Below, piece after piece: positions 7,853 to 10,450 of a DNA stretch of 64,000 nucleotides (position 1 is the first letter of the stretch; each line of letters begins with the position of its first letter). This DNA comes from Leptonemataceae bacterium (GTDB taxonomy: Bacteria; Spirochaetota; Leptospiria; Leptospirales; Leptonemataceae). The position numbers and the translations under genes were made by a program. A model generated the notes under the pieces. That model did no database searches, was not told the origin of the DNA, and saw only the letters and a list, made by a program, of their open reading frames with translations. The DNA lies in contig OZ245742.1 in assembly GCA_965227295.1 (NCBI GenBank), positions 4,928,001 through 4,992,000 on the forward strand. The letters run 5' to 3'.

Positions 7853-8941
7853 TCACGGTTCGCGCATCACAACGTGATACGTACCCCCATTTGCTCCTTG
7901 AATCAGGAAGTAATCCGCGTCCGCACAACGAAGGTTTCGAATCAGTTTTGCGATGCGGCCCGGCATTCGGCCGCGCAGGAATCCCGGGCGGCCGGAAAAA
8001 CTGTAGAACTCAGTACCCTCACGGGCACCGACCGATAAATGCAGACCGACTGAAGTTCCGAAGATGCGAACGTCTTCCTGTTCTCTGTCCACTGCCGCGT
8101 CCAATACGGCAGCGACTTCCACTATGTGACAGGGATGATACAAAGCATATGTACGCTCCGGACTGAACTTACGATTCATCGCAGTCAGAATCGCAACAAC
8201 CGTAATAAAACAGAAACTCGCAGTTCCGTACCATCCGGAGGGAAGAACGCCGGCGACACTGGAAGCCCCGGCAAAGCCCGTGAGAACCCAGGAAGTCCAC
8301 TGGGCCTCGGAAAAACCCATCCAGTAGGGCCGATCCGTATCGCCACGCAGGAATTCGAGACAAAAGCGCGTAGCACCGTAGGCTTCGGTATACCAGAGCA
8401 AGGTGTAACCGGGGGAAGCATTGAGTATAAGATAGACTCCGTATCCGGTGATACAGGAAGCAAGCACTGCTTCGATTATCTGTACCGGAAAGAGCGGAAC
8501 ACCCTCATAACATGATGGAATACCGTGTTTCGTATGGGCCTTTGAATATAACACTCCATGCCTGGCGGGACGGCCGTGGCAACAGCCGGCCAGAAGACAG
8601 CCGACACGAAGGCAACTGATCACACATCCGACACATACCAGGACGATGTCCAGGAATGACTCGAAGGGCGCATCCATGATCCATAGCACCACCGCAGCGA
8701 AGCAAAGGACACCGATTTCATGGTGATAGTAGACAATCTGTTCGTAGCCGGTGAGAAGCCTCGTACCGAGAATGACTACGAAAATCGCGCTGATCGACGC
8801 AACCGTCAATGCGATCCCGACCCCGAGAGAGAGCCCGCGCACATTCACCATCCATAGTCCCACAACGACGGCGAGGCTGATACCAATCAAGCCGAACAAC
8901 CGATACGGCGCGACCGGCATCTCAGGTATCCTGAATCGCAT
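7853..8941 (-). CDS. Prolipoprotein diacylglyceryl transferase (Lgt) family paralog
   Basis: Multi-TM protein with RVGCLLAGCCHGRP, FPVQIIEA and YGATRFCLEFLRGD motifs corresponding to Lgt conserved blocks; extra C-terminal soluble tail. Confidence 0.8.
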   Translation of the reverse strand: MRFRIPEMPVAPYRLFGLIGISLAVVVGLWMVNVRGLSLGVGIALTVASISAIFVVILGTRLLTGYEQIVYYHHEIGVLCFAAVVLWIMDAPFESFLDIVLVCVGCVISCLRVGCLLAGCCHGRPARHGVLYSKAHTKHGIPSCYEGVPLFPVQIIEAVLASCITGYGVYLILNASPGYTLLWYTEAYGATRFCLEFLRGDTDRPYWMGFSEAQWTSWVLTGFAGASSVAGVLPSGWYGTASFCFITVVAILTAMNRKFSPERTYALYHPCHIVEVAAVLDAAVDREQEDVRIFGTSVGLHLSVGAREGTEFYSFSGRPGFLRGRMPGRIAKLIRNLRCADADYFLIQGANGGTYHVVMREP

Positions 8942-8947
8942 GACGTT

Positions 8948-10450
8948 TTATCTGCCTGGTATGGCGCGCAGGATCGGGTCGAGACTCGTGGCGGGACGAT
9001 CAGTGCGATGATCATACAACGGGATCGTCATATCGAGAAGCGAGCGATAGTTCGGCTGATCGAAGAATGTACTCACCGCCGCCTCATCGAATACAAACGT
9101 AACTGCCTCGCTGTTCGGAATCGGATCGGTTCGCCGCACGAACTCGGTTTGAACCACACCGCGCTGCTGAAGAAAATAGTACAGCCGGGCCTTACGCCAC
9201 CTGGCTTTATCGCCGGTCTTCACGTCGAGATTGATGTCGGCCGTAGCACGCTCTCGACCGATGGGGCTGCCCGCCCCCTGACCCATGAATCCAGGAATCG
9301 GGTTTTTGGATAAATCTTCCGGAAGGGTCGCGGCGAGGTTCTTCGTGTCGGCAACGCGGTCCCCACGCTCCTCGCCGGCTCGCCCTTCGATCTTGGCCAG
9401 GTTCGCGTTGTACCAGTTCCCATGACGGTTTCTGTTAGCACGATTCCGATAGCCGTTAGAGCCGTTGAGGGCGGTGTTGAATGCCGTCATTGGAACGGAT
9501 TCGGATTCCGCGGTCGCGTTTTGCAGGGCGTAATTTTCCTTACTGAAGATCAATCGATTGATGTAGGCCCAGATGATAAGATTTCTTTGAGGATACGGCC
9601 CCTCGCTCATTGCTACGGCGGCCAGGGCATTCTGTTGATCCGCGGTCAAGGCAAGCCGTCCAGGAGCCGCGAACTTCTCGCTCTGTTTTTCCTTGATGGA
9701 ACTCAAGTCACCGCGCTGTACAGCTTGAAATTCCGCAGCGGTAATTCCGAACGGATACGGAATTCGGAGCTTCCATCCACGGCCGATGAAACTCTCCCGT
9801 CCGGTACCGATCCGCGGATACTGCGCCCGATTCACGCGAATCAAGAGCGCCAGCGACACGTTGAAACGTTCCGCAATATCCTTGAGGCGCTCGTTCGCGC
9901 GAACGGTATACTCGGTGCGAATCTCCGGCGGACGATCCTTCTGTTCCGTTTCTTCTTCAGGGGCCCGCCGGCACGATTGAATCTGTAAACCGGACTTAAG
10001 ACGGGGCTTAATATTTCCCGCAATACCCTTAACACCGGACCACAGTCGACTTACCACTCCAACTGCGCTACGATCCGCATCGTGCTCCAACGCACCGCCG
10101 GTCTCCGCACGGCTTTTTGCCTGTGCAGCGTTGGTATTCCCCTGGCCTTGCTGCTGTAAAGTATGGGCCAGCTCATGTGCCAACAAGCCGTCGCCTACCG
10201 GCGTCCCCGGCCGATATTCACCGTTATCAAATGCGATATGATTCCCCATGGTCACTGCACGAGCATTGTACTTCGCTGCCGCGTCGCGCCCCGCAGAATC
10301 GGTATGAATCCGAACGCCGGAAAAATCCTCCCCGAACGCATGCTCCATACGCTGGCGTGTTGTCGAATCAAGGGGCCGTCCCCCTTTAAATGAATGGCTC
10401 GACTTCCGGTAGCGCCCGGCGCCTTTATCATTTGAAGCATACGATTTCAT
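8948..10450 (-). CDS. DUF4157 (eCIS-associated) domain protein with LysM and putative cell-wall hydrolase C-terminus
   Basis: GRPLD...RMEHAFGEDFSGVRIHTD...ARAVTMGNHIAF...LLAHELAHTLQQ; LysM YTVRANERLKDIAERFNVSLALLIRVN; ATG 10450 with AGAGG RBS. Confidence 0.85.
   Translation of the reverse strand: MKSYASNDKGAGRYRKSSHSFKGGRPLDSTTRQRMEHAFGEDFSGVRIHTDSAGRDAAAKYNARAVTMGNHIAFDNGEYRPGTPVGDGLLAHELAHTLQQQGQGNTNAAQAKSRAETGGALEHDADRSAVGVVSRLWSGVKGIAGNIKPRLKSGLQIQSCRRAPEEETEQKDRPPEIRTEYTVRANERLKDIAERFNVSLALLIRVNRAQYPRIGTGRESFIGRGWKLRIPYPFGITAAEFQAVQRGDLSSIKEKQSEKFAAPGRLALTADQQNALAAVAMSEGPYPQRNLIIWAYINRLIFSKENYALQNATAESESVPMTAFNTALNGSNGYRNRANRNRHGNWYNANLAKIEGRAGEERGDRVADTKNLAATLPEDLSKNPIPGFMGQGAGSPIGRERATADINLDVKTGDKARWRKARLYYFLQQRGVVQTEFVRRTDPIPNSEAVTFVFDEAAVSTFFDQPNYRSLLDMTIPLYDHRTDRPATSLDPILRAIPGR

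Follow-up and report, generated by a model that had tools for sequence, protein, structure and literature searches.

An Lgt-like membrane protein linked to DUF4157 cargo with an invariant boundary cysteine: a candidate enzyme for lipidation of injection-system effectors

What would an Lgt-like enzyme do beside a cargo protein that has no signal peptide? The question is raised by a 64,000-nucleotide stretch of the genome of a Leptonemataceae bacterium (hereafter the window; 4.928-4.992 Mb on a single 5.94-Mb contig), where a gene for an effector-like protein, P0001, is followed after 6 nt by a gene for a membrane protein, P0002, that resembles Lgt. Lgt is the phosphatidylglycerol:prolipoprotein diacylglyceryl transferase, the first enzyme of the Lgt-LspA-Lnt pathway (E. 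coli structures PDB 5AZB and 5AZC), and DUF4157, found near the N terminus of P0001, is the most widespread marker of contractile-injection-system (CIS) cargo. A first-pass annotation of the window had speculated that the Lgt paralog lipidates an internal cysteine of P0001 or, alternatively, that it is an immunity or export factor. A better description, we found, is that the pair represents one copy of an accessory module widespread in the cargo arrays of extracellular contractile injection systems (eCIS), a context that lay beyond the view of that annotation. We give about even odds (0.5) to lipidation of an invariant cysteine of the cargo by the Lgt-like enzyme at the inner face of the membrane.

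The association of the two genes recurs in distant bacteria. We analysed the loci of the best 80 of 236 confirmed relatives of P0002 (pattern scan, one genome per species; loci L020-L099). By record title, the loci span 11 phyla (Acidobacteriota with 40 loci, Bacteroidota with 19, Chloroflexota with 7, the remainder in other phyla) and include some from the cultivable Kibdelosporangium persicum, Aquimarina mytili and Calothrix sp. NIES-4105. With a DUF4157 hidden Markov model built from 14 copies in the window's genome, a DUF4157 open reading frame (ORF) was detected within 6 kb in 69 of the 80 loci. Except in L059 and L075, these ORFs and the Lgt-like gene are encoded on one strand, and the ORFs often adjoin the gene on one or both sides. 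Neighbours of eCIS type occurred within 6 kb in 40 of the 80 loci (Afp15-type AAA ATPase in 34, CIS tube protein in 13, Pvc16_N in 12 and Phage_base_V spike in 12), and the Lgt-like gene is thus usually found within the cargo array of an eCIS. The interval separating the Lgt-like gene from the cargo gene upstream of it held no conserved small ORF.

About half of the DUF4157 ORFs in these loci carry behind the domain a module with the consensus LE[ED]DAD.SAVGAV.SLW.G.K, about 15 variable residues and P.L[RK]SGL[RK]LQRC. The strict pattern finds it in 70 of 144 DUF4157 ORFs (49 loci) and a profile (A2) in 87 ORFs (61 of the 80 loci); variant modules were present in five further loci, as GLSLRRC (three Bacteroidota loci), SGLKLQRC and GLSIHSC. 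Counted over 89 profile matches with the cysteine as +1, the cysteine is present in all 89, and is preceded by R in 79 at -1 (S in 5, G in 2, A in 2, Q in 1), Q in 70 at -2 (S in 15), L in 82 at -3 (I in 6), L in 88 at -5 and G in 82 at -6. Conservation ends at the cysteine. A stretch rich in A, K, G, T, P and S and poor in hydrophobic residues comes next, followed by unrelated domains, and the median length beyond the cysteine is 256 residues. A post-cysteine stretch of this kind is the look of a mature lipoprotein N terminus. A hydrophobic 19-residue window (Kyte-Doolittle mean of at least 1.6) upstream of the domain was seen in 4 of 87 module proteins, indicating that module proteins are not exported by a signal peptide.

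P0001 itself follows this scheme. Its module ends at the invariant residue, Cys160, as LKSGLQIQSC (codon 9971-9973), and 25 hydrophilic residues stand ahead of DUF4157, with no signal peptide to be read from the sequence; residues 1-175 are 42-53% identical to 50 relatives. The cysteine with its preceding residues and the lack of a signal peptide had been pointed out in the first-pass annotation, together with VIQR-F at the end of the corresponding linker of the second DUF4157 protein of the window, and we found all of them as written. The HExxH motif of P0001 is H92-E93-x-x-H96, and H92, E93, H96, Q99, Q100 and E122 are invariant in alignment A4. The signature of PVC-metallopeptidase is HExxHxxQ...E in the accessible text of Zhang et al. 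2012 (PMC3482391). We take E122 to be the third zinc ligand of this signature, which would tether Cys160 about 38 residues from the peptidase site (E122 to the cysteine).

The linkage also holds from the side of the module. Among 17 DUF4157 matches in the window's genome, the module is present in one, the neighbour of the Lgt-like gene. In three further genomes (G401-G403) all five module matches fall inside Lgt-like loci; eight other DUF4157 ORFs of these genomes, two within the loci and six elsewhere, are without the module. A reverse scan of metagenomes with [KR]SGL[RK]LQRC (profile A3) gave 146 confirmed relatives in 77 distinct loci, of which 43 contain an Lgt-like ORF, always on the same strand. 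When 1.5 kb or more of DNA was required on each side of the module, the fraction was 16 of 21; a minimum of 3 kb gave 11 of 12, and one of 5 kb gave 7 of 7. (The identical scores of five module loci, L116-L120, make it probable that they are copies of a single sequence; the 12 include none of them.) Finally, of 301 genomes from the phylum of G401, 37 have DUF4157, three the Lgt-like gene and three the module, and the last two features occur in the identical three genomes, G401, G402 and G534. G401 and G402 were seeds, making G534 the sole independent positive; there both genes lie on contig 7, at most 10 kb apart. The informative part of this pattern is the 34 DUF4157 genomes that have neither feature (two DUF4157 genomes, G555 and G427, are flagged as unpublished). 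The co-occurrence of Q[RS]C DUF4157 proteins with the Lgt clade, proposed as a check in the first-pass annotation, is therefore strongly positive in both directions.

Is P0002 still an Lgt? Pfam LGT (PF01790) matches residues 3-221 with E 2.3e-16 (60.3 bits, cutoff 24.9). An AlphaFold2 model, made on an alignment of 28 clade sequences (A1), reached a predicted local distance difference test score (pLDDT) of 90.3 and a predicted template modelling score of 0.87. Residues 1-237 of the model superpose on E. coli Lgt (5azc_A) with Z 17.1 and a root-mean-square deviation (rmsd) of 3.2 over 222 aligned residues, from which all seven Lgt helices are present in P0002, and Foldseek matched the model to 5azb with E 1.6e-4. 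Neither P0002 alone nor the A1 profile matched PDB sequences, even at E 10.

We took residue equivalences from an hhalign comparison of A1 with E. coli Lgt (probability 34%, E 4e-4). R112, G114, G119, G123, P152, E157, Y188, R192, E196 and R199 of P0002 correspond to R143, G145, G150, G154, P197, E202, Y235, R239, E243 and R246 of E. coli Lgt and are kept; all of them are invariant in A1, and the spacing of Y188, R192, E196, R199 and E157 is identical. Replaced are N146 (C115), N149 (A118), E151 (C120) and W153 (H122); of the E. coli signature G142-R-L-G-N-F-I-N-G-E-L-W-G154, R, G, G and G remain. Y71-Y72-H73-H74-E75 sits where E. coli has H103-G-G-L, at the start of transmembrane helix (TM) 3; the hhalign match begins one residue later, which makes the pairing of single residues in this motif tentative. 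According to the accessible text of Mao et al. 2016 (PMC4728403), R143, which is catalytically essential, binds the donor lipid in the catalytic site, complementation failed with every substitution tried at R239, E243 and R246, Y235T alone among the Y235 substitutions was partly active, and E151 is part of the first, substrate-selecting phosphatidylglycerol site. Most Lgt residues essential in E. coli are thus kept, and on the whole the interpretation of the first-pass annotation is supported in part. By these equivalences, P0002 appears to keep the catalytic core of Lgt and to be changed in the part that selects the donor.

In addition to the Lgt-fold body, P0002 has an eighth transmembrane helix and a soluble C-terminal alpha/beta domain. 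The best structural matches of this domain were weak (PscP SS 5cuk_A, Z 6.0; 2qzi, Z 5.1-5.7; BcsD, Z 5.1), as were Foldseek matches to YbjN. The additions belong to the clade as a whole. A search with P0002 returned 651 proteins at E 0.001 or below (8,000 candidates scored), and the best 120 of the 651 are 326-492 residues long, cover 75-100% of the query, are 29-43% identical to it and all contain PF01790. The invariant motifs of A1 are E..[IV]YYHHE, GR[VI]GC...GCCHGRP and Y...RF..E..RG...R..(gap)..S..QW, and the C-terminal extension is conserved as well.

Lgt is known solely as an enzyme that faces outwards and works on prolipoproteins that have been exported, and in E. coli Lgt the active site is periplasmic and the cytoplasmic face positive (PMC4728403, accessible text). 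The P0002 clade has the opposite distribution of charge. Averaged over 28 clade members, the number of K+R on the active-site side was 4.96 in the N-terminal tail, 0.36 in loop 2-3, 4.04 in loop 4-5, 2.39 in loop 6-7 and 2.89 after TM8; on the opposite side, where the loops are short (4-7 residues), it was 0.36 in loop 1-2, 0.46 in loop 3-4, 0.18 in loop 5-6 and 0.18 in loop 7-8. The summed means are 14.6 and 1.2, respectively. E. coli Lgt is the reverse, with no K or R ahead of TM1 and with TRRANRP..K, ARRTKRS and IRKPRP in loops that are uncharged in the paralog. By the positive-inside rule, this bias predicts that the active-site face, the N terminus and the C-terminal domain of the clade are cytoplasmic, that is, an active site facing inwards and inverted relative to E. 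coli Lgt. The three invariant cysteines of the active-site loop and the absence of a signal peptide from the cargo are consistent with a cytoplasmic site. Fusions to a CxxCxxCC domain (PF03692), found in 4 of 123 Lgt-like ORFs, are N-terminal in L026 and L050 and C-terminal in L093 and L134, and fit both ends lying on one, reducing side.

The PF03692 domain (about 220 residues, YkgJ-like and metal-binding) is also encoded by a separate gene directly downstream of the Lgt-like gene in L039, L047 and L058; in some lineages it may make up a third part of the system.

The proposal has two parts: a subfamily of DUF4157 cargo whose constant N-terminal unit would end in a pseudo-lipobox, S-G-L-[RK]-L-[QS]-R-C, and a distinct clade of the Lgt superfamily with an arginine/glutamate/tyrosine core, extended by an eighth helix and, at the C terminus, a soluble domain. 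On the cytoplasmic side of the membrane, the Lgt-like enzyme would capture cargo that lacks a signal peptide and attach a lipid to the invariant cysteine through its thiol; by analogy this would be a diacylglyceryl group, perhaps drawn from another donor. Cleavage between R and C by the DUF4157 zinc peptidase of the cargo itself may follow, giving an effector with a lipidated N-terminal cysteine, and the lipid might serve to target the effector to a membrane or to tether it in the producer. We favour S-lipidation, at the even odds given above, because of the cysteine at the boundary, the leucine at -3, the tether, the retained Lgt core and the predicted inward-facing site. That the Lgt-like gene tracks the constant module rather than the variable toxin likewise argues for action on the module.

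Several observations weigh against lipidation. The canonical lipobox, [LVI][ASTVI][GAS]C, needs G, A or S at -1, and the R found there in 79 of 89 modules breaks it; nor does a membrane-spanning h-region stand ahead of the cysteine. P0002 falls far short of the NCBIfam equivalog cutoffs (TIGR00544, 19.4 versus 118.9 bits; NF000778, 44.6 versus 334 bits), and with N146, N149 and E151 changed to C, A and C and HGGL apparently to YYHHE, the donor lipid or even the reaction may differ from those of Lgt. The hhalign probability is low, and it is the fold match and the motif spacing that chiefly carry the residue mapping; the inverted topology has two supports, the positive-inside rule and the domain fusions. 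As to linkage, 11 of the 80 Lgt-like loci have no DUF4157 within 6 kb, six of them with several kb of flank on each side, and three loci (L158, L167 and L169) have module arrays with no Lgt-like gene in the available DNA. Finally, a lipidated protein is awkward as cargo for the lumen of a tube, and DUF4157 is dispensable for AlgoCIS loading according to the accessible text of the PROCIS preprint (10.64898/2026.05.27.728243).

A fuller pathway can be drawn, which we regard as possible and hold only tentatively. Here, an inverted Lgt would S-lipidate cargo at L-Q-R-C, the DUF4157 peptidase would act as its signal peptidase II, and the eCIS or lysis would deliver effectors that are already anchored; possibly, lipidation itself would free the peptidase from a cysteine switch. 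An autoproteolytic releasing peptidase was predicted for PVC-metallopeptidase (Zhang et al. 2012, PMC3482391, accessible text). Among the 52 DUF4157 ORFs of the 80 loci that lack the module, 24 have [LIVM]QR within 100 residues past the domain, compared with 3.1 ± 1.6 in shuffles. [LIVM]QR may thus be the processing site of the DUF4157 family, to which a cysteine at P1' would have been added in the Lgt-linked subfamily.

Two units of DUF4157 and Cys module stand in tandem in single ORFs of two loci (L042:2173-5952 and L032:7137-11696). These ORFs are polyprotein-like, and release by cleavage at each module would fit them.

The best surviving rival, which we consider unlikely, is that the Lgt-like protein is a catalytically altered or inactive membrane dock that recruits module cargo for particle loading or assembly, the cysteine being, for example, a cysteine-switch ligand of the DUF4157 zinc site or part of a disulfide. 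The extra soluble domain on the active-site side, the altered signature loop and the eCIS neighbours in half of the loci speak for a dock, and, with the presumed zinc ligand E122 merely 38 residues ahead, the cysteine could reach the peptidase site. However, a pure dock would have no need of the invariant R112, R192, E196, R199, Y188 and E157, whose counterparts in Lgt bind and activate the donor, and the cysteine sits exactly at the boundary of constant and variable parts, with L at -3, as in a lipoprotein. The Lgt-like protein may alternatively act in export, as the first-pass annotation also proposed.

We give only a slim chance to the Lgt-like protein remodelling membrane lipid for the release or firing of the particle, with its linkage to cargo reflecting a shared operon history. 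Lgt-fold enzymes bind phospholipid (PMC4728403, accessible text), the altered residue at the selection-filter position E151 could mean another lipid chemistry, and the 11 loci with no nearby DUF4157 suit such a role. It leaves unexplained, however, why co-occurrence is confined to the Cys-module subfamily (1 of 17 in the window's genome; 3 of 3 genomes versus 0 of 34 other DUF4157 genomes), and in the window the pair is isolated, the closest eCIS markers being about 0.79 Mb away. Equally improbable, in our view, is an Lgt paralog of ordinary orientation, with a periplasmic active site and cargo exported by another route before lipidation. The Lgt fold is conserved, and all studied Lgt enzymes act on the outer face (PMC4728403, accessible text); against this, every one of the nine loops or tails has the reverse charge bias, the active-site loop contains three invariant cysteines, the CxxCxxCC domain is fused at either terminus, and the cargo has neither a signal peptide nor a membrane segment. 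An immunity or self-protection role against neighbouring effectors, the alternative of the first-pass annotation, is very unlikely: the Lgt-like gene has toxin-like genes for neighbours, and immunity proteins that sit in the membrane are known (Zhang et al. 2012, PMC3482391, accessible text), but it follows the constant module rather than the toxin domains, which beyond the cysteine are unrelated between loci whereas the Lgt-like protein is 29-43% identical across phyla for most of its length, and there is one copy per array of up to four DUF4157 genes, up to three of them with the module.

The part of P0001 beyond the cysteine looks like a peptidoglycan effector (Table 1). The first-pass annotation had read LysM and a segment resembling SleB/CwlJ there. 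For LysM (PF01476), the Pfam score stayed under the cutoff (E 1.3e-3; 19.1 bits, cutoff 20.9), and support came from phmmer, by which residues 170-232 match the LysM-repeat proteins P0123 (2.6e-12) and P0130. For SleB/CwlJ, the resemblance holds in the fold: a model of residues 255-500 (8 sequences; pLDDT 75.3) matched the SleB catalytic domain 4f55_A with Z 8.1 (rmsd 2.3; 109 of 128 residues aligned) and 4fet_A with Z 7.9, the next-best structure scoring 3.9, whereas Pfam Hydrolase_2 (PF07486) had no match in P0001 up to E 0.1, and the Atlas lead was 0.80. E283, W294, Y296 and N298 of this domain are invariant, E283 in 8 sequences (alignment A5); E283 is a candidate counterpart of the catalytic glutamate of SleB. 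A profile of A5 met PDB sequences in one chance 23-residue match and nothing else. An exhaustive phmmer search with residues 170-500 returned 51 proteins at E 0.001 or below; a word-index homologue search with the same residues had recovered P0001 alone. Residues ~269-467 match a small unannotated family (P0131, P0134, P0137, P0148, P0165, P0168 and P0169), whose members are fused to DUF4157 or PG_binding_1, or have no Pfam domain. The domain is thus like SleB/CwlJ (4F55, 4FET) in its fold and in being preceded by a putative peptidoglycan-binding, LysM-like module, and unlike them in lacking a Hydrolase_2 match, in the ~7% identity of the structural alignment, in its extra C-terminal strands and helices and in the fusion partners of its relatives. 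To judge from model and matches, P0001 would be a peptidoglycan-binding and probably peptidoglycan-cleaving effector; either action on a target cell or help in lysis of the producer fits its sequence.

Table 1. Features of the two-gene unit, of the remaining window and of the PF03692 fusions (fusions in the coordinates of their own loci)
Feature	Coordinates	Strand	Remarks
P0001	10450..8948	-	500 aa from ATG at 10450; effector-like; the same 500-aa form is in the public protein collection
P0001 layout			short N-terminal region, DUF4157, Cys module, tether, LysM, SleB-fold domain
DUF4157/eCIS_core (PVC-metallopeptidase)	10142..10375	-	residues 26-103; Pfam E 1.1e-29
Post-domain Cys module	9971..10141	-	residues 104-160; LEHDADRSAVGVVSRLWSGVKG...KPRLKSGLQIQS-C; full KPRLKSGLQIQSC
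Hydrophilic tether	9911..9970	-	residues 161-180; RRAPEEETEQKDRPPEIRTE; similar character in relatives
LysM-like peptidoglycan-binding segment	9815..9910	-	residues 181-212
SleB-fold (lytic-transglycosylase-like) domain	9086..9652	-	residues ~267-455
P0002	8941..7853	-	362-aa Lgt-like membrane protein; stop codon included
Lgt-fold body	8231..8941	-	residues 1-237; seven helices and a small beta head; equals E. coli Lgt 7-285
Altered signature loop	8567..8608	-	R112-V-G-C115-L-L-A-G-C120-C121-H122-G-R-P125 (E. coli R143...G154)
Eighth transmembrane helix	8165..8233	-	residues 237-259; no counterpart in E. coli Lgt
C-terminal alpha/beta domain	7862..8152	-	residues 264-360; kept across the clade
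611-aa ORF	5348-7183	+	no Pfam match; HEIGHH (HExxH-like) motif
Convergent flanking gene	7237..7851	+
AMP-binding, PaaK/DVU_1553-like ligase (divergent flanking gene)	10583..12142	+	132-bp spacer to P0001
Flagellar/type III export genes	28387-34153	-	FHIPEP, FlhB, Bac_export_1, FliP
Second DUF4157 protein	49441-52083	+	880 aa; Het-C domain; VIQRF after DUF4157
Large ORF	58834-63999	+	runs off the window; SpvB, TcdB_toxin_midN/midC, FG-GAP
PF03692 fusion, N-terminal	L026:5158-5925
PF03692 fusion, N-terminal	L050:5161-5925
PF03692 fusion, C-terminal	L093:2999-3652
PF03692 fusion, C-terminal	L134:4647-5327

The organization of the locus agrees with the first-pass annotation, which had described a two-gene unit with a 6-nt gap and a GC content below that of its flanks. 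Two co-directional minus-strand ORFs fill positions 7853-10537, the gap running from the TAA of P0001 (8948-8950) to the ATG of P0002 (8941), and the convergent and divergent genes on the two sides set them apart as a unit of two genes. A 355-aa form of P0002 is present in the public protein collection (P0003); it would fit a start at the second in-frame ATG, 21 nt downstream of the first, with a gap of 27 nt. The unit has a GC content of 0.557 (genome, 0.598), which places it at the 5th percentile of 2.6-kb windows, and its GC at third codon positions (GC3) is 0.58-0.61 against 0.71-0.78 across four neighbouring genes. A promoter scan did not find a sigma-70-like promoter, terminator-like sites were no more frequent than in shuffles, and no injection-system structural gene was seen among 37 other large ORFs scanned in the window.

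The AMP-binding ligase gene that diverges from P0001 is not among the recurrent neighbour clusters of the 80 related loci. It is probably unrelated to the pair, and one could imagine it as an acyl-activating partner. The 611-aa ORF with the HEIGHH motif lies two genes off the pair. Elsewhere in the window, the DUF4157/Het-C protein has neither the Cys module nor an Lgt-like neighbour, and the large ORF at the end of the window would, by its Pfam domains, be a Tc-toxin B-component-like protein. The export-apparatus genes and a urea carboxylase/allophanate hydrolase cluster beyond them look like ordinary chromosomal context.

The window copy is not beside an eCIS operon. The pair is at 4.936 Mb, and the three sets of sheath and Pvc16_N markers in the genome are at ~1.57, 2.80 and 5.72 Mb. 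The genome keeps a canonical lgt at 3.599 Mb, scoring 129 bits in the genome search in which the paralog P0002 scored 58 bits. A quick tree of 80 rows (P0002 and the 79 locus proteins that were long enough) plus two canonical Lgt proteins, those of E. coli and of the window's genome, split the Lgt-like clade from the canonical ones on a branch of 3.59 with a Shimodaira-Hasegawa-like approximate likelihood ratio support of 100. Phyla were intermixed in this tree, and P0002 formed a long branch with no supported sister. Sampling of 401 genomes from the window's phylum turned up the clade in one; four further matches were partial (78-89 bits, in frames of 264-274 aa), and we take them to be ordinary Lgt. 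In the phylum of G401, the clade was limited to the three of 301 genomes described above, two of them seeds; genome samples of this kind have low power to detect presence. This rarity, the low GC3 and the mixing of phyla suggest horizontal acquisition.

The Lgt-like genes of two loci, L068 and L090, are nearly identical and sit on a long branch. DUF4157 is missing within 6 kb of them, and their neighbours include T4_baseplate-like and AAA genes; they may serve another type of cargo.

How does the proposed system compare with known ones? P0002 is like E. coli Lgt in its seven-helix fold, in its Pfam LGT score and in the invariant equivalents of R143, E202, Y235, R239, E243 and R246; it is unlike it in its eighth helix, soluble C-terminal domain, altered signature loop and reversed charge bias, and unlike an orthologous Lgt in that its clade sits on a long branch and the host keeps a canonical lgt besides. 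The putative acceptor cysteine resembles that of Lgt substrates in having Leu at -3 and a flexible tether after it, and differs from it in the R at -1 and in the lack of a signal peptide. P0001 is like eCIS cargo (AlgoCIS Cgo1 and Cgo2) in combining an N-terminal HExxH domain with a variable toxin domain, and relatives of it are found in eCIS operons; the module ending in cysteine and the linked Lgt-like gene set its subfamily apart from other DUF4157 cargo. Lipidation of toxins and effectors in the cytoplasm is known from HlyC/CyaC, which acylate RTX toxins, from DHHC S-acyltransferases and from the self-cleaving AvrPphB. These are similar in outline, in that a toxin comes to carry lipid, before or after delivery, through a specialised enzyme or a cleavage, and their folds and chemistries are unrelated to those proposed here. 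To our knowledge, no Lgt-fold enzyme acts on cytoplasmic proteins.

In the literature on DUF4157, eCIS and Lgt paralogs we found no account of the pairing, and the accessible texts of Geller 2021, the PROCIS preprint, Danov 2024 and Zhang 2012 (PMC3482391) do not mention Lgt. The Pfam table of Geller 2021 shows no enrichment of LGT among eCIS (2 occurrences, odds ratio 0.35; 12 of the 15 supplementary files covered), as expected if canonical Lgt swamps a rare clade. Within the limits of these literature searches, we regard the system of Lgt-like protein and Cys module as undescribed.

If true, our reading would mean a new route of protein lipidation in bacteria. The role of DUF4157 is called unknown in the accessible texts of Geller 2021 and of the PROCIS preprint. 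Under the lipidation reading, the DUF4157 unit would gain a testable function, with processing at [LIVM]QR and, in this subfamily, the cysteine as lipid acceptor; the full pathway would also hand DUF4157 its long-sought function. The prediction is simply testable, with two genes and a few point mutants, and, if it holds, would offer a means to make lipid-anchored payloads for engineered injection systems.

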